Assembly (NCBI GenBank): GCA_003224175.1
Contig: QHYQ01000243.1
Location: 8,835 to 72,834, forward strand
DNA length: 64,000 nt
Direction of reading: 5' to 3'
Source: Acidobacteriota bacterium
GTDB lineage: Bacteria; Acidobacteriota; Terriglobia; Acidiferrales; UBA7541
The notes under the pieces: model-generated
What the model saw: only the letters and a program-made list of their open reading frames with translations
Databases searched by the model: none
Told to the model about the DNA's origin: nothing
Part shown: piece by piece, positions 2,421-39,363 of the stretch
Layout: every line of letters begins with the position of its first letter
Position numbering within the stretch: position 1 is the first letter of the stretch
Translations under genes and position numbers: made by a program

Positions 2421-3521
2421 TCAAGGAATGACCAGAATTTTTAAAGAGTTGTTCGGCCGTGCAGCAAGCGACAATGCCGCGCCGAATTCCTCTAGAGAAA
2501 AACGATGTGTGATGAGCGCTGATACGGGCAGCACCCGCGAAAAGACCAGGTTCGCCGATTCCTCCTGGCGATCCACAGCGGCGCTGTAACTCCCGAGGAT
2601 CTCCTTCTCCGCCACTCCTATATCGGCGGCGGGAAATTCGACCTTCATGTGCGGATCATTCTGGGCAAAGAGAAGCACACGGCCGCCAGGCCGCGCGGCG
2701 GCGAGCGCCTCGGACACCGCTGACGGCAAGGGAACCGCGACCAGCACCGCGTCTGCTCCACGGCCGGCCGTACGTTTCCGGACTTCCTCCGCAAGCGAAC
2801 AAGCCAGAGGATCAAATGTTGCCTCCGCACCCAAGCGCTCGCTGGCGGCCCGCCGCTCCGGCATCGGGTCGGTGGTAAACACACGAGCGCCGGCCCGCCG
2901 TGCGAGCAACATCAGCAGCAGGCCGATGGGTCCCTGGCCGATAACCACTACAGCCTCACCGGCCTCCACGTGCGCCTTCTCCACTGCTTTCAGACAGGTG
3001 TTCACGGGCTCCACGAATGTTGCTTCTTCGAAGCTTATGCCCGGCGGAATTTCCACCATTCCTCGCTCGACGATACACGGCATTGCCCGCACGTATTCCG
3101 CAAAGCCTCCCCCATTGGGCTCGAAACCTGCTGTGAGTCCCACTGTCTTGTAAGCCAGGCATTGTGAGAAAAGCCGCCGGTCACAATAGAAGCAAGCACC
3201 GCAAGGCACGTGATGAAAACTGACGACGCGGTCACCTTCCTTCCAACGGCGAACCCCGCGGCCAACGGCGGCGATAGTGCCGGCGACCTCGTGTCCGAAT
3301 ATCTGTGGAGGAGCAATGAAGCCATGCTGTATTTTTTTCAGATCTGTCCCGCAGATGCCGCAGGCGGCCACCCGAATCAGGACTTCGCCCTCGGCGATTG
3401 CTGGAACAGGAACATACTCGGTCGCCACGCGCCCCGGGCCGCGATACACTCCCGCACGCATCTTCTCGGGTAGCGTAGCGCGGTGTTCGGCGTCTGCGAT
3501 GAGATTGGGCGCGATGGTCAT
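2421..3521 (-). CDS. Zn-dependent alcohol dehydrogenase, MDR superfamily; paralogue of the preceding gene
   Basis: Motifs ACGICGTD, FGHEVAG, CGACFYCDRRLFSQC and GQGPIG are present. I prefer the ATG at 3521 (MTIAPNLIAD...), which overlaps the hpnG stop as ATGA. The 398-aa track ORF starting at 3617 would overlap hpnG by 100 nt. Confidence 0.88.
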   Translation of the reverse strand: MTIAPNLIADAEHRATLPEKMRAGVYRGPGRVATEYVPVPAIAEGEVLIRVAACGICGTDLKKIQHGFIAPPQIFGHEVAGTIAAVGRGVRRWKEGDRVVSFHHVPCGACFYCDRRLFSQCLAYKTVGLTAGFEPNGGGFAEYVRAMPCIVERGMVEIPPGISFEEATFVEPVNTCLKAVEKAHVEAGEAVVVIGQGPIGLLLMLLARRAGARVFTTDPMPERRAASERLGAEATFDPLACSLAEEVRKRTAGRGADAVLVAVPLPSAVSEALAAARPGGRVLLFAQNDPHMKVEFPAADIGVAEKEILGSYSAAVDRQEESANLVFSRVLPVSALITHRFSLEEFGAALSLAARPNNSLKILVIP

Positions 3522-34847: not shown

Positions 34848-35261
34848 TTAGGCCTTCGAGGTCCAGGACGACGTTACACTGTGGCGCAGCCGCTCCCCTT
34901 GTGACTTCAGGCGATCAAGCAAGCGCCGCGCCCAGACGAACTCCGCCGCCAGCATCGCGAGGCCTCCGATGATGACCAGCCAACCCGGCCCGGGCGTAAT
35001 CAGCATCACGACACCAACCAACAGGAGCGTAAATCCACCCAGGATCTTGAAGAACCGCCTTATCTGCTGAACCGTCTCGAGAGACACCGCAACCTCCCCT
35101 ATTCCCCAACCCCATACCTCATCCACCAGTTTACTTAGATTGTGAGAATGACCTCGTGGTTTCACCTCAACCATGAATCGAAGCAATTTTAATTCCGAAC
35201 GGCCTATTGGTTCGACCGACCCAGCCCTGGCCGCAGGCCCTGATTCTGCCCCGAAGGCCAC
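34848..35261 (-). CDS. PGPGW-motif small transmembrane protein
   Basis: LLLVGVVMLITPGPGWLVIIGGLAMLAAEFVWARR is present. An alternative start lies at ATG 35174. Confidence 0.6.
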   Translation of the reverse strand: MAFGAESGPAARAGSVEPIGRSELKLLRFMVEVKPRGHSHNLSKLVDEVWGWGIGEVAVSLETVQQIRRFFKILGGFTLLLVGVVMLITPGPGWLVIIGGLAMLAAEFVWARRLLDRLKSQGERLRHSVTSSWTSKA

Positions 35262-35419
35262 TGATTAAGGTTGATTTAGAGGCAGAAGCGGCGCCTGACG
35301 CGTTCGCCAGCAAGGAAATTTGGCTGCGTCGAAAATGGCAGAAGTTTGGGAATAAGGGAGTTAGGTCAAACTAGCTCGGAGAATTTTAATCGGGAGAAAC
35401 GTCTGACCCCGATTCCGGT

Positions 35420-36769
35420 TCAGCTGGCTCCCATAGTCACGGGTGGAACCTCGGCTTTGGCCGTCGCCGCTACCGCCCCCACGACCAGTAACGCTGGCGC
35501 AGGCGGTGCCGGCACGCTCGCCAGAGACGCCAGGTCAGTCCGACAAATCGATTCCTGCGGAGCAGAAGCCTGCGAAACGATCAGACAAGGTGTCTCTTCG
35601 GAGATGCCTGCGTCCCGCAACGCGTGCGCGAGGCGTTTGTAATCGCTTCCCGGCATGTAAATGACTAGAGTGGCGCCGGTACGCGGCACCGACTTCAAGT
35701 CGCGCTCAAACTCTCCTTCGCGGCGGTGCGCACTCAGGAAGATGAGTTGGGAGGCGACGCGCCGGTCCGTCAACGCAATTTGCGCGCTGGCTGCCGCAGC
35801 AGAGGCTGCGGTGACGCCTGGTATGACTTCAAAATCCACGCCGGCCTCGCGCAAGGCGGAGATCTCCTCGCCGGCGCGGCCGAAAATCAAGGGGTCGCCT
35901 CCCTGGAGACGGACGACAGTCTTTGCAGTAGAGGCATATCCGACGAGCAGCGCGTGAATCTCCTCCTGCGTGATCGATTTCGCACCGCAACGCTTTCCCA
36001 CGCTGCACAATATTGCCGCGGGCGGCACGATACTCAGGACCTGCGCAGAGACCAGCGCGTCGTGCAGAACCACATCCGCCGAGCGCAGGACGTTCCAGGC
36101 TTTGCGTGTCAGCAAATCCGGATCGCCCAGTCCCGCTCCAACGAAATAGACCTTACGCCGATTATCTTGTTTGGCGGAATTCTGCCGCGCCTGGAACTCC
36201 GCGAAGGCGCGTTCGCTCGAAAGCTCCTTGAGAATCGCGCGCCGGCCTTCCGGTGAAATATTAGAGTCGAAAAGCTCGCGGCGCTGCCGCCCGATCTCCT
36301 CGACCCAAGGGCCATAGTCGGGCCCAAACTGCTCTTCGAGTTGGCGGCGCAACCGCTGCGCCAAAAAGGGAGAATGTCCCGAAGTAGAAATGGCCAGCTG
36401 CAGCGCACCTCGGCGCACGACAGCGGGATAATAAAAATCGCACCGCTCCGGCTGGTCGACCGCATTGCACAAAATTCCGGTCTGCTCGGAGCGCCGAAAA
36501 ATCTCTTCGTGTAATTCGGGGGAATTTGTCGCTGCAATTACCAAGGAAACTCCGGCAAGATCGGAGGGCGAAAATCGGCGCTCGTCCCAGACAATCCGGC
36601 CTGAGCGGGCATCCTCGCGGATGCCCGGCGTAGCCTGCGGCGCGACGACCCGCACTTCGGCGCCGCAGCGCAGCAGGCTCCGCATCTTAGCTTCGGCCAC
36701 TAGGCCGCCCCCGACAATCAGGCATCGGCGTCCAGCGAGCTTCAGGAATATGGGGAATAGCTCATCCAT
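35420..36769 (-). CDS. cysG: Siroheme synthase (precorrin-2 dehydrogenase/ferrochelatase plus uroporphyrinogen-III C-methyltransferase)
   Basis: The start at ATG 36769 (MDELFPIFLKLAGRRCLIVGGG) matches the canonical CysG N-terminus. The methyltransferase motif is VYFVGAGLGDPDLLT. The longer GTG 36856 version would begin inside a terminator hairpin. Confidence 0.9.
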   Translation of the reverse strand: MDELFPIFLKLAGRRCLIVGGGLVAEAKMRSLLRCGAEVRVVAPQATPGIREDARSGRIVWDERRFSPSDLAGVSLVIAATNSPELHEEIFRRSEQTGILCNAVDQPERCDFYYPAVVRRGALQLAISTSGHSPFLAQRLRRQLEEQFGPDYGPWVEEIGRQRRELFDSNISPEGRRAILKELSSERAFAEFQARQNSAKQDNRRKVYFVGAGLGDPDLLTRKAWNVLRSADVVLHDALVSAQVLSIVPPAAILCSVGKRCGAKSITQEEIHALLVGYASTAKTVVRLQGGDPLIFGRAGEEISALREAGVDFEVIPGVTAASAAAASAQIALTDRRVASQLIFLSAHRREGEFERDLKSVPRTGATLVIYMPGSDYKRLAHALRDAGISEETPCLIVSQASAPQESICRTDLASLASVPAPPAPALLVVGAVAATAKAEVPPVTMGAS

Positions 36770-36838
36770 CGGGTCGCTCGTAAATATCGCGCGCTTGGCT
36801 TGTAACTTTAAGAAAATTCGTTCCGCCAGCCGTGCGCC

Positions 36839-36879
36839 AAAAACCAAAAAACCCACCGGCCAGCCATTCTGGCGGTGGG
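36839..36879 (-). terminator. Intrinsic terminator/attenuator hairpin 70 nt upstream of cysG
   Basis: The minus strand reads CCCACCGCCAG-AATGG-CTGGCCGGTGGG (11 bp with one bulge) followed by TTTTTTGGTTTTT. Confidence 0.6.
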
Positions 36880-36905
36880 CTTTGCTCGTTCAGATTGCAG
36901 CTACT

Positions 36906-36992
36906 CTAAACCAACAACCTCCCGTCGCCAGAGGAGACAGAACAACAGGCGCCAAACAGCGCCCCGCAAGCCTTCGAGCAGCAAATCAACAT
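36906..36992 (-). CDS. Cys-rich 28-codon leader peptide ORF upstream of cysG
   Basis: Read directly as atg ttg att tgc tgc tcg aag gct tgc ggg gcg ctg ttt ggc gcc tgt tgt tct gtc tcc tct ggc gac ggg agg ttg ttg gtt tag, which gives MLICCSKACGALFGACCSVSSGDGRLLV*. It is below the ORF-track length cutoff. Confidence 0.45.
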   Translation of the reverse strand: MLICCSKACGALFGACCSVSSGDGRLLV

Positions 36993-36998
36993 CAATTC

Positions 36999-37028
36999 AT
37001 TCTAAGTTTGGCGGATGGGGTAAGTCAA
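36999..37028 (-). promoter_or_regulatory. Candidate sigma70-type promoter for the cysG leader
   Basis: The minus strand reads TTGACT (37028..37023), an 18-nt spacer, TAGAAT (37004..36999), then 6 nt to the leader ATG. This raises the possibility of leaderless initiation. Confidence 0.4.
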
Positions 37029-37214
37029 TATTTCCAGGCCATCGGGGCCATCGGCCCTTTAGCAGTGGTTCACAGGGTGTTGTTGGGTACGCATGCGACT
37101 CGATTTCTAAACTTGTCCGCCGATGCCGCGAATCGTGGCATAGTGCCATTTGCCCGAGTGGCTATACTTCTCCGAAGCTATCTCGGCACGCGGCGCAAAG
37201 CGGAGATAACATCG

Positions 37215-38345
37215 ATGCACCTTCTCATCGGAATTTTCGGGTTTGCACTCCTCGTGGCCATTCTCTGGGACTCGTTCGAGAGTGTCATCCTGCCTCGCCA
37301 TGTGCGACGCTCTTTCCGCATCGCGCGATTGTTCTTTCGTACCGTATGGGGAATATGGTCTCTGACGGCGGCCCAGATACGCACTCCGAAGCGGCGGGAA
37401 GGGTACCTGAGCTACTTTGGCCCGCTTTCTTTGCTCCTGCTCATCGGCTTTTGGGCACTCGCGCTGGTGCTGGCGTTTGCGATGCTACAGTGGGCCGTGG
37501 GATCCGCCCTGAATTCAACCGGGACTCCGGCCGGATTCCGGACCGATCTGTATTACAGCGGAACAACTTTCTTCACGCTGGGATTGGGCGACATCACACC
37601 TCACAATTCTGGAGCTCGAGTCCTCTCTGTCGTTGAGGCAGGGACAGGATTTGGCTTTCTCGCGCTCATCATTGCCTATTTGCCCACTCTCTACGGCTCG
37701 TTTTCACAACGGGAAGTAAGCATCTCCCTGCTCGACGCACGCGCCGGTTCGCCTCCCACAGCCTCCGAACTGCTTCGCCGCCACGGCACGGAACGAATCC
37801 ACGACGGCCTTGCCCATTACCTGCGCGACTGGGAAACATGGTCGGCGCAATTTATGGAAACACACCTGACTTACCCCTTTTTGTGTTTCTTCCGGTCGCA
37901 GCATGACAACCAGTCCTGGATCGCAGCGTTCACGGCCATCTTAGACACTTGCGCACTTTTGATCGCCTATGGCGAGGGCGAGACGAAATGGCAGGCACAG
38001 CTCACTTTTGCCATTTGTCGGCACGCCATAGCCGACCTGGCACAGATTTTCGGCGTCCATCATCGGAGGCCCGAACCGGATCGCCTCCCCGCCGAGGATC
38101 TGCCCAAGGTACGCAGCTTGTTGGTTCAATGCGGAGTGCCGGGCTGCACCGAGGCGGGCGACGCAAAGCTGAAAGAGCTGCGCCTGCTTTACGAACCCTA
38201 CCTGAATGGGCTTTCTAGACTGCTGTTGATGCCGCTTCCATCATGGGGAGTGCAAACGCCGGCCGGCCAGGAGAATACAGTATGGGGACGAATTACTTCG
38301 AGAACGACACGAAAGCCGGAAGAGGTGGAGACCGATCATTTCTGA
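37215..38345 (+). CDS. Potassium-channel-family (Ion_trans_2) membrane protein with a C-terminal soluble domain
   Basis: The start at ATG 37215 gives MHLLIGIFGFALLVAILW. The pore region reads YYSGTTFFTLGLGDITP. The upstream 250 codons of the 626-aa track ORF are antisense to cysG and were rejected. Confidence 0.7.
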   Translation: MHLLIGIFGFALLVAILWDSFESVILPRHVRRSFRIARLFFRTVWGIWSLTAAQIRTPKRREGYLSYFGPLSLLLLIGFWALALVLAFAMLQWAVGSALNSTGTPAGFRTDLYYSGTTFFTLGLGDITPHNSGARVLSVVEAGTGFGFLALIIAYLPTLYGSFSQREVSISLLDARAGSPPTASELLRRHGTERIHDGLAHYLRDWETWSAQFMETHLTYPFLCFFRSQHDNQSWIAAFTAILDTCALLIAYGEGETKWQAQLTFAICRHAIADLAQIFGVHHRRPEPDRLPAEDLPKVRSLLVQCGVPGCTEAGDAKLKELRLLYEPYLNGLSRLLLMPLPSWGVQTPAGQENTVWGRITSRTTRKPEEVETDHF

Positions 38346-38439
38346 TGCCTTGCTCGAAATGGAGTTCCAGAGCTTAAGCCAAACCAGCCCACTCGCGAAG
38401 GAATTGTTCGCAATAATTCGGCGGAGTCTGCCAAATACG

Positions 38440-39363
38440 TCACTTTTCGATATCGGTCAGACAGTTTGCGACACATTTGGAGGCGACCACTTCGACTCCT
38501 ACCTTTTTGTTAGGGGGCACCTTGCTGCCGGGTTCGGGGGCCGCGACGAAAGACTGCGGTCCATCGGCGAGATCAAACGTGCACTCGAACGCGGCCGAGC
38601 GCACGGATCTCTGCATGCACGATCGGTTATCAAACGTAGAGTCGAGGTTGTCCGGTTTTCCGCGCAGTTCGTCGGCCACTCGCGACGGTACGATAGCCAC
38701 AGTCATCGGAACGGGAGAATTGATCTTTACGCTAAATGGTTCGCCATCCCGCTCCGCCGTGATCCCGTCGTAAATCTTCAGCGCTGACGTGAGGTCATAG
38801 ATCTCTTTGAGTTCGCTGATCCACTGGTACTGCGGTGGATTGCAGTTCTCGACGCAAGCCCAGCGGTAGTAGTGGATGTGAATGTCATTGGGAGAGAGGA
38901 ACTCGCGCACGGTGCCGTGCTCAGTAAGGGGCGCACCAAAGGCCGTTACGGCGGTTCGGTCGCTATCGCGTTCGTCGCGGAGGACCAGGATCATGGGGCG
39001 TCCTGGGACGACCTCGCACACGTAAGTTGCCTTGGTGACGTGCTCGCGAACGCAGCGGAAGTTGACGCGGGGCAGCAACTCAGGATGCCGGGCCGCTTCA
39101 CTCCACTCTTGCGCTGGGGCCATCTCCACGGTTACGGGCTCCTGGGCGGCGATATCGACATGGACATTCCCGGTTTGGTCGCCGGACTTGAAGACGTGGC
39201 CCGTGTGATAATCGGCCGGGTCCAGGCGAGCGCTCTCGTCGTTTGTTGCTTGCCAATCGAAAGTGGACTCTTGAGCGCCGCCCGTTAGAACCGCGCCGAC
39301 ACTGAAGGCACAGACGAGGGCAATTGCTAGCAAGGTCCATTTTTTCAGTAGCTTGGAATTCAT
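38440..39363 (-). CDS. Secreted hypothetical protein
   Basis: 307 aa with signal peptide MNSKLLKKWTLLAIALVCAFSVGAVLTGGAQ. I recognise no family. Confidence 0.55.
   Translation of the reverse strand: MNSKLLKKWTLLAIALVCAFSVGAVLTGGAQESTFDWQATNDESARLDPADYHTGHVFKSGDQTGNVHVDIAAQEPVTVEMAPAQEWSEAARHPELLPRVNFRCVREHVTKATYVCEVVPGRPMILVLRDERDSDRTAVTAFGAPLTEHGTVREFLSPNDIHIHYYRWACVENCNPPQYQWISELKEIYDLTSALKIYDGITAERDGEPFSVKINSPVPMTVAIVPSRVADELRGKPDNLDSTFDNRSCMQRSVRSAAFECTFDLADGPQSFVAAPEPGSKVPPNKKVGVEVVASKCVANCLTDIEK

Follow-up and report, generated by a model that had tools for sequence, protein, structure and literature searches.

Organization of the leader region of cysG

The window analyzed in this study is a stretch of 64,000 nucleotides (nt) from an Acidobacteriota bacterium (assembly GCA_003224175.1, contig QHYQ01000243.1, positions 8,835 to 72,834). 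The relatives of its siroheme synthase, CysG, place the window in the group 2 Acidobacteria (gp2). The gap between cysG and the divergent gene next to it is 445 nt long, and inside it, on the minus strand, lies a leader made up of a promoter-like sequence, a short open reading frame (ORF) rich in Cys codons, and a hairpin followed by a T-run. The initial annotation of this DNA had regarded the leader as a candidate cysteine attenuator, and the coordinates given there for the promoter, the ORF, the terminator, and the ATG of cysG are all correct on the minus strand. In the following, the nt of the transcript are numbered from the A of the ATG at 36992, and the leader comprises 154 nt through the U-tract. 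The promoter, the ORF, and the putatively regulated gene have the following elements.

37028-37023, minus strand: −35 hexamer TTGACT; TTGAC is invariant in 23/23 gp2 sequences while the spacer sequence varies
37004-36999, minus strand: −10 hexamer TAGAAT, 18-nt spacer from the −35 hexamer; TA(G/C/A)AAT in 23/23 gp2 sequences
36992-36906, minus strand: leader ORF of 28 codons plus TAG, encoding MLICCSKACGALFGACCSVSSGDGRLLV, with five Cys; ATG 6 nt past the −10 hexamer
36978-36983 and 36966-36968, minus strand: additional Cys codons within MLICCSKACGALFGACCSVSSGDGRLLV
36947-36942 (nt 46-51), minus strand: Cys-Cys codons 16-17, UGU UGU, the proposed stall site; Cys16 is present in every in-frame gp2 leader
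36908-36906, minus strand: stop codon TAG at the end of MLICCSKACGALFGACCSVSSGDGRLLV
36769-35420, minus strand: cysG, siroheme synthase, with the Pfam domains NAD_binding_7, Sirohm_synth_M, and TP_methylase

The leader promoter is the top sigma-70-like site within positions 35000-39000, with 10/12 matches, and across 23 unique gp2 sequences it combines a −35 hexamer TTGAC(T/G/C) with spacers of 17-19 nt and the −10 hexamer given above. Cys makes up 18% of the codons of the leader ORF, compared with 1.3% in the long ORFs of the window. On the two strands of the window there are eight short ORFs that start with ATG and contain a Cys-Cys pair and at least three Cys; of these, the leader ORF alone combines a promoter with a T-run further downstream. 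The product of cysG clears the NCBIfam equivalog model for CysG, NF007922 (421 bits; cut-off, 400 bits). The end of the T-run is separated from the cysG ATG at 36769 by 69-70 nt, and no promoter-like site was found between the terminator and this ATG in the window.

Since the ATG lies 6 nt after the −10 hexamer, the leader mRNA is probably leaderless, a start that we infer from the promoter geometry. This possibility had been raised in the initial annotation, and it agrees with the distance of 6-7 nt between the −10 hexamer and the ATG in 23/23 gp2 sequences and in the separately diverged leaders of the Acidobacteriaceae type described below. Leaderless genes have been predicted in 3/3 Acidobacteria genomes by Zheng et al. 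(PMC3160421).

Conservation of the leader in group 2 Acidobacteria

The leader arrangement is found directly 5′ of cysG in 10/11 of the closest gp2 genomes, three of which have a different upstream neighbor gene. That the leader is kept where the neighbor differs indicates that the element travels with cysG. Metagenomes were searched with a pattern that described the hairpin around the stop codon and the 5′ arm of the terminator only and left the ORF and the downstream gene unconstrained. All 24 matching loci lie directly 5′ of cysG and carry the promoter, an ATG 6-7 nt past the −10 hexamer, a Cys-rich ORF, and the terminator. The presence of a Cys-rich ORF and hairpin before cysG in relatives, which had been proposed as a check of the attenuator idea, is thus borne out by both surveys.

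Within gp2, the distance from the ATG to the stop codon is 84, 81, 78, or 66 nt, all of which are multiples of three, and the frame is kept in 22/23 sequences. The predicted peptides contain 2-8 Cys each, 2-5 of them at codons 13-18, with Cys16 constant in the in-frame leaders. Apart from the Cys codons, the N-terminal half varies freely, and the C-terminal ..SG.GRLLV is kept. The distance from the stop codon to the terminator is 26 nt in the window and a constant 26-27 nt in gp2. The spacer between the terminator and cysG ranges from 28 to 95 nt across gp2 and has no conserved sequence, and the shortest spacer (28 nt, in locus L003) is too short to hold a separate cysG promoter. In the window and across the leader family, the core Cys pair is almost always UGU-UGU, whereas the long ORFs of the window prefer UGC 3:1. 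Such a bias at the putative sensing site would fit the use of the rarer, wobble-read codon, or an RNA-level constraint.

Terminator, hairpins, and predicted antiterminator

The leader region is more stably folded than shuffled sequence (z = −2.5). Its predicted structural elements, with the free energy (dG) of each hairpin, are listed below in the 5′ to 3′ order of the transcript.

36964-36947 (nt 29-46), minus strand: P1 hairpin GGGCGC-UGUUUG-GCGCCU, in the ORF directly 5′ of the Cys-Cys codons; dG −11.7 kcal/mol
36934-36918 (nt 59-75), minus strand: P2 hairpin CCUCU-GGCGACG-GGAGG, the 1:2 pairing or anti-antiterminator; dG −6.6 kcal/mol
36932-36921 (nt 61-72), minus strand: region 2, the putative 5′ strand of the antiterminator, UCUGGCGACGGG (UCUGGCG-AC-GGG), which complements CCC-AC-CGCCAGA of the terminator 5′ arm
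36917-36882 (nt 76-111), minus strand: P3 hairpin, whose 5′ arm contains the stop codon UAG, nested within the putative antiterminator helix; dG −11.7 kcal/mol
36879-36852 (nt 114-141), minus strand: intrinsic terminator hairpin; dG −21.3 kcal/mol in isolation; 89% of cells paired
36879-36869, minus strand: terminator 5′ arm CCCACCGCCAG, followed by the loop AATGG (AAUGG)
36863-36852, minus strand: terminator 3′ arm CTGGCCGGTGGG (CUGGCCGGUGGG as RNA)
36851-36839, minus strand: T-run TTTTTTGGTTTTT (U-tract UUUUUUGGUUUUU as RNA), the expected attenuated 3′ end; conserved in all relatives

The GC-rich terminator hairpin with its U-tract is present in every member of the leader family, and in a paralogous leader of locus L012 its arms have changed compensatorily (CCCAUUCG/CGAAUGGG). 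P3 is supported by covariation at alignment columns 87/101, which hold G-C in 13, A-U in 6, and G-U in 2 sequences in a manner coupled to a change of the stop codon from TAG to TAA, and by one C-G swap at columns 77/111. In P1, 77% of cells are paired and one pair shows two-sided changes. In P2, 94.5% of cells are paired, and no two-sided covariation was found in the gp2 alignment. The family-wide covariance model alignment A3 was excluded from all pair counts because P2 and P3 of the distant members are poorly aligned in it.

According to the initial annotation, the 3′ part of the ORF, CTGGCGACGGG (36931-36921), can form pairs with the 5′ arm of the terminator at 9/11 positions, and terminator and antiterminator are mutually exclusive folds. 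The pairing is confirmed; with the preceding U it amounts to 7+3 base pairs, and the dG of the duplex is −19.3 kcal/mol. Exclusive folds that depend on the position of the ribosome were obtained when 22 gp2 sequences were folded under constraints, with a stall represented by a mask over nt 1-61 (codon 17 in the A site, terminator 3′ arm not yet made) and a ribosome at the stop codon by a mask over nt 70-96. The free full-length RNA folds to the terminator in about 19/22 sequences. The stall-masked nascent RNA folds to the antiterminator with P3 nested inside in 22/22, and the RNA masked at the stop codon folds to the terminator, likewise in 22/22. Unguided RNAalifold also yields the antiterminator together with P3, whether it is given the full alignment or the nascent segment. 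The divergent paralogues described in the next section follow the same fold logic with other sequences: region 2 of L011 is sequestered by a long 1:2 helix, and the antiterminator pairing of L052 is CACGGG:CCCGUG.

Two further observations bear on region 2 and its partner. No variation occurs at G125, at the top of the 5′ arm of the terminator; its partner in the terminator is unpaired in 10/22 sequences, and its partner in the antiterminator, C62, pairs in 22/22. Across the leader family, UCU-GGC does not vary at third codon positions, a sign that region 2 is constrained at the RNA level.

Related leaders upstream of other sulfate-assimilation genes

A covariance model, R1, was built on the gp2 alignment. 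It finds one copy in the window and divergent copies (E values of 1e-8 to 1e-3) in more distant Acidobacteria, not upstream of cysG. The leader peptides predicted for them are MSQACACCTPCCRCVSSGAKGLT, MTLCCQLCRVMTNMLCCCGMTQPGAREIKVLP, MVMCCQPCRMMCCACCGGANASGAGEIVV, MIILSNLRQICMCACCCCACVCSGAGRLLT, and one ending in MCCCCGAAGVSSGAGRLLT, all with dense Cys runs and each followed by a terminator. In these peptides, runs such as MCCCC, CCACC, CACCTPCCRC, CCPCC, and CCRRC persist while the remainder has changed. The persistence of Cys runs in predicted peptides that otherwise change, upstream of genes of the cysteine pathway, is a hallmark of regulatory leader peptides. Counted by frame, Cys takes up 122 of 617 codons in the frame of the divergent leaders and 38 of 590 and 6 of 590 in the other two. 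These leaders use UGU and UGC in a ratio of 87:35, the reverse of the 1:3 preference of the window.

The genes downstream of the divergent copies belong to several steps of sulfate assimilation. In L011 and L057, the leader is followed by a gene for a 567-amino-acid (aa) siroheme reductase of the NirA/Sir family and then by cysG, and in L012 by the reductase gene, cysH, and cysG. In L009 (4905-5046, plus strand), the leader MSQACACCTPCCRCVSSGAKGLT, with seven Cys, and its terminator lie downstream of cysG and upstream of the genes for a sulfate-binding protein (sbp) and CysT; the geometry of this leader looks non-leaderless, with about 19 nt from a possible −10 hexamer to the ATG. On several gp2 contigs related to the window, a second, divergent leader, MKELITLRCQALCCPCCPSRCSGVGGETI, with a terminator, stands directly 5′ of cysD-cysN, at a distance of some 5 kb from the cysG leader and in a unit that converges with that of cysG. 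Both the cysG and the cysDN leader occur on contigs L094, L095, L097, L099, L103, and L090, where the cysDN leader has the following positions.

L103:1292-1451, plus strand: cysDN leader MKELITLRCQALCCPCCPSRCSGVGGETI
L094:1122-1281; L097:1487-1646; L099:6396-6555: cysDN leader MKELITLRCQALCCPCCPSRCSGVGGETI
L095:12743-12893; L090:8177-8321, minus strand: cysDN leader MKELITLRCQALCCPCCPSRCSGVGGETI

Every paralogous copy immediately precedes sulfate-assimilation genes that share its strand. The CysG, CysD, CysN, CysH, sulfate-binding protein, and CysT encoded downstream of the leaders pass their NCBIfam cut-offs. The NirA/Sir-family reductase scores below its equivalog cut-off, so that its role is deduced from its context.

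The arrangement with the reductase gene before cysG is common in Acidobacteria. Among loci L011-L061, a motif search located the reductase gene in 39 loci and did not locate it in 9 others. In 39/39 of these reductase-before-cysG loci, the 260 nt before the reductase gene include a short ORF with a Cys-Cys pair, at a distance of about 170 nt; the background is 2-4% of random 260-nt windows. In the form typical of Acidobacteriaceae, the ORF has 17 codons (MDLRTCCRRCMTPRAHR and variants), the terminator is a different one (GCCCGCGAC.../...GUCGCGGGC), and the promoter consists of TTGCA(A/T), a 17-nt spacer, and a −10 hexamer 6-7 nt before the ATG. The complementarity test for an antiterminator was non-significant for this short leader type.

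The element of the window belongs to a homologous family of Cys leaders found in Acidobacteria before cysG, cysDN, the sir-type reductase gene with (cysH and) cysG, and sbp-cysT. The leaders before cysDN, before reductase-(cysH)-cysG, and before sbp-cysT tie the element to sulfate assimilation as a whole and not to cysG alone.

Two further observations were made in this survey. A conserved block of about 200 nt 5′ of cysG in Acidobacteriaceae (L013-L046, at about 2800-3000; apparent ORF MFPKRSRGCCA...) was suspected of being a second RNA element and was rejected, because the apparent ORF is an out-of-frame reading of the reductase gene's 3′ end. In addition, two contigs from metagenome-assembled genomes assigned to other organisms, L001 (DASPYR010000175.1, "Rugosimonospora sp.") and L057 (CAWCEX010000010.1, "uncultured Actinomycetota"), encode an acidobacterial-type CysG and carry an acidobacterial Cys leader; they are likely to be mis-binned or mislabeled.

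Proposed mechanism

We suggest, with a probability of roughly 0.8, that the element works as a transcription attenuator controlled by the ribosome, with the supply of charged tRNA-Cys as its measure of cysteine. According to this model, transcription would begin within 1-2 nt of the A of the ATG at 36992, the ORF would be translated without a Shine-Dalgarno sequence, and RNA polymerase would synthesize 154 nt of leader RNA up to the end of the strong intrinsic terminator, which lies 70 nt before cysG. When cysteine is plentiful, the ribosome would reach the UAG in the 5′ arm of P3, cover the G-rich part of region 2, and melt P3; the terminator would then form, and transcription would stop before cysG. 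When Cys-tRNA is scarce, the ribosome would stall at the UGU-UGU codons 16-17, with its leading edge at about nt 61 covering the 5′ arm of P2. The UCUGGCG..GGG sequence set free in this way could pair with the newly made 5′ arm of the terminator, CCC..CGCCAGA, with P3 stacked inside, and as this pairing would precede the synthesis of the terminator 3′ arm, the polymerase would read through into cysG. If the ORF is not translated at all, P1, P2, P3, and the terminator would all form, which makes termination the predicted default.

Several results weigh against this model. Compensatory covariation for the antiterminator was sought in gp2 and not found, and six of its nine pairs never vary. An extension of the antiterminator into the terminator loop is not significant either: its −2/+2 position is paired in 18/33 sequences, where 16.3 would be expected (p = 0.22), and is a C·A mismatch in the window. 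The complementarity between region 2 and the terminator arm beats that of shuffled sequences in only 6/26 family members, with z = −1.6 and p = 0.08 for the window. Even in the stall-masked RNA, the terminator exceeds the antiterminator in stability by 3-9 kcal/mol in 16/17 tabulated sequences, so that the switch has to operate kinetically, which is the accepted view of classical attenuators. RNAalifold also pairs GCGCCUGU (36944-36951), which consists of the 3′ arm of P1 and the first of the conserved Cys codons, with the terminator 3′ arm (36852-36859). This helix (columns 42-49/134-141 of alignment A2) is rich in wobble pairs and shows no compensatory changes; it could account for the nucleotide invariance of GCGCCUGUUGU or be an artefact of consensus folding.

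The ORF has weak points as well. In L098 (Ga0210408_10012334; leader 3231-3381, minus strand), a 1-nt deletion, GGGTTTTAC, breaks the frame and leaves the RNA elements intact; it may be a sequencing error, mark a decaying copy, or mean that the RNA matters more than the ORF. The frameshifted ORF of this locus would continue past the terminator. Frame 2 of the gp2 leaders is also Cys-rich (70 Cys codons, compared with 110 in frame), because the sequence is rich in UGU and UGC, and frame 3 is mostly open. The string UGUUGU is nearly invariant at the nucleotide level across gp2 and is conserved in the paralogous leaders too, which could reflect an RNA-level constraint. The interpretation as a Cys-codon attenuator put forward in the initial annotation is strongly supported by the related sequences, with the qualification that the antiterminator is backed by conserved complementarity and not by covariation.

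Alternative explanations

The conservation of the RNA itself could mean that the leader binds a metabolite or a protein and acts through the terminator, with the short ORF as an incidental by-product of a U/G-rich structured RNA. UGUUGU and UCUGGCG are invariant even at synonymous positions, and the Cys-rich second and open third frames of gp2, the RNA elements untouched by the frameshift of L098, and the helix that unguided RNAalifold adds with the Cys-codon segment would all suit a binding RNA. However, there is no relevant match in Rfam even at E = 10, and the 5′ half of the leader varies in sequence and structure and has no aptamer-like conserved junction or loop core. The position of the ATG is fixed relative to the −10 hexamer, and the indels come in multiples of three. 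Moreover, in-frame Cys runs (122, 38, and 6 codons by frame) persist in paralogues that are otherwise different, and the identity of the codons matches the genes downstream, all of which belong to the cysteine and sulfate pathway. We consider a binding RNA improbable. It is also quite improbable that a Cys leader of this kind regulates by another read-out, be it the initiation of downstream translation, as in the mycobacterial Ms5788A, or Rho, or the coupling of transcription and translation, with the hairpin serving as a constitutive partial terminator. Such a read-out would accommodate an antiterminator that does not covary and is weaker than the terminator, and the sole Cys leader dissected by experiment does act translationally (10.1101/834739). 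Against it stand the GC-rich hairpin and U-tract of every family member, placed 26-27 nt past the stop codon in gp2, and the conserved complementarity of region 2 and the terminator 5′ arm. The distance from the terminator to the start codon is variable and its sequence unconserved, which argues against a conserved structure that sequesters the ribosome-binding site.

The promoter, the ORF, and the strong terminator form a complete unit, and with the C-terminal ..SG.GRLLV conserved within gp2 they might be taken for a gene in its own right, which encodes a small Cys-rich protein or a small RNA and lies next to a cysG that is transcribed separately. We regard this as very unlikely. There is no promoter-like site between the terminator and cysG, and the spacer in which one would have to lie is unconserved and, in L003, too short. 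The element accompanies cysG when the upstream neighbor changes, and its paralogues always precede sulfate-assimilation genes directly and on the same strand. The peptide is also unconstrained beyond the Cys codons and the stretch that overlaps the helices; an L-to-K change (UUG to AAG), for example, extends P2. Attenuation by a ribosome that reads the Cys codons is the reading that we prefer.

A wider hypothesis, to which we give somewhat better than even odds, is that Acidobacteria run the whole assimilatory sulfate pathway (uptake by sbp-cysT, activation by cysDN, reduction by cysH plus the sir-type reductase, and the siroheme cofactor by cysG) as a ribosome-read Cys regulon that replaces a CysB-like factor, and that one ancestral leaderless poly-Cys leader with its terminator was duplicated before each unit. 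The terminated 154-nt leader RNA, or the Cys-rich peptide, could also act in trans.

Neighboring features

The gene divergent from cysG has the following position.

37215-38345, plus strand: gene for a potassium-channel-like protein of 376 aa with the Pfam domain Ion_trans_2

The ORF of 626 aa listed at 36465-38345 (plus strand) over-extends this gene and crosses the leader in antisense; the actual gene probably spans 37215-38345. No further copies of the leader and no other sulfate-assimilation genes, cysDN included, were found in the window.

Significance

Acidobacteria are a dominant and mostly uncultured phylum of soil, and their gene regulation is almost uncharted. According to an earlier survey, almost none of the attenuators predicted in Acidobacteria have an assigned function (PMC2965389). 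The element offers a concrete mechanism by which sulfate assimilation and the supply of siroheme could be matched to the demand for cysteine, and it would make Acidobacteria the third phylum with cysteine-sensing leader ORFs, after Actinobacteria and Alphaproteobacteria. It would also join leaderless initiation with classical terminator/antiterminator control. In practice, R1 together with simple sequence rules can be used to annotate overlooked short ORFs and to mark sulfur-assimilation operons in metagenomes. Because the mechanism is a textbook one, the value of the finding lies in its breadth and in annotation rather than in a new principle.

Comparison with known systems

Neither in the window nor in 12 related loci does any Rfam family attain its gathering score. 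The best sub-threshold match, the Pseudomonas rnk leader (20 bits; cut-off, 55 bits; E = 0.65), was rejected because it shares only the generic shape of a terminator. The initial annotation knew of no described Cys-codon attenuator on cysG in this type of organism. For Acidobacteria this agrees with the literature searched on leader peptides, attenuation, and cysteine, in which no description of such an element was found; beyond the phylum, precedents exist in mycobacteria (10.1101/834739) and, as a prediction, upstream of cysS in Rhodobacterales (PMC8632094).

The closest of these is the mycobacterial "Cys ribulon", a set of leaderless short ORFs with polycysteine tracts whose function has been shown experimentally (Canestrari et al. 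2020, bioRxiv 10.1101/834739 / Mol Microbiol 114:93). As there, the acidobacterial leader is an unannotated short ORF, predicted to be leaderless, with at least two consecutive Cys codons, and it stands as the first cistron before operons for cysteine and sulfur metabolism. Several loci per genome carry such an ORF, and the peptide is otherwise poorly constrained; in mycobacteria these loci give a coordinated, ribosome-read response. The differences concern the read-out and the origin. In Ms5788A, no intrinsic terminator is involved, and stalling of the ribosome opens a structure in which the Shine-Dalgarno sequence is sequestered, whereas the acidobacterial element has a terminator and a predicted antiterminator. 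Its conserved terminator and the variable, unconserved spacer to the start codon set the acidobacterial element apart from terminator-free translational attenuation of this kind. The mycobacterial short ORFs have been described as independently evolved, whereas the acidobacterial leaders are detectably homologous to one another. The comparison is one of descriptions, between a system of another phylum established by experiment and a leader known by computation. If the regulon hypothesis is true, the acidobacterial regulon would be a convergent counterpart of the Cys ribulon, but a transcriptional one that arose from homologous copies.

Cys leader peptides have also been reported upstream of cys operons in Actinobacteria, where a dependence on Rho has been proposed (2005, PMC1262725). 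Like the acidobacterial leaders, they are short ORFs with Cys runs near the stop codon, located before cysteine genes and found by comparative genomics. Terminator hairpins were not found in them, whereas the acidobacterial element has a strong and conserved intrinsic terminator.

The uORFC-8-2 motif upstream of cysS in Rhodobacterales is a predicted ribosome-mediated transcription attenuator (Brewer et al. 2021, PMC8632094) and resembles the acidobacterial element in having an upstream ORF with two tandem conserved Cys codons (at about codons 14-15 there), stems, and a terminator with a 3′ U-run. However, it controls a cysteinyl-tRNA synthetase gene in Alphaproteobacteria, whereas the genes downstream of the leaders found here, in Acidobacteriota, are the sulfate-assimilation genes cysG, cysDN, the sir-type reductase gene, and sbp. 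UGC dominates among the Cys codons of uORFC-8-2 and UGU among those of the acidobacterial leaders, and uORFC-8-2 has not been reported as leaderless or as a family that spans several operons. As target genes, phylum, and read-out differ, the element lies outside both of the named Cys families.

Classical leader-peptide attenuators control the trp, his, leu, thr, ilv, and pheA operons of Proteobacteria. The model for these attenuators (discussed in PMC1183508) shares with the acidobacterial element the cluster of codons for the end product, the alternative 1:2, 2:3, and 3:4 pairings as predicted by folding, and the intrinsic terminator before the first structural gene. In both, a ribosome that terminates at the stop codon would be positioned to block the antiterminator, and of the two folds the terminator is the more stable one, which would make control kinetic. 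Unlike the classical attenuators, the element uses cysteine as the regulatory amino acid, is predicted to be leaderless instead of initiating at a Shine-Dalgarno sequence, and has an extra conserved hairpin, P3, which carries the stop codon and nests inside the putative antiterminator. Its targets also go beyond terminal biosynthetic enzymes and include the cofactor gene cysG as well as sulfate activation and transport. Judged by these comparisons, the acidobacterial element would sense as the Cys ribulon does, and its read-out would follow the terminator-versus-antiterminator paradigm of trp and his. It is thus apparently a known kind of switch in a phylum in which it had not been described, and its added interest lies in what appears to be a regulon of homologous copies for sulfate assimilation.

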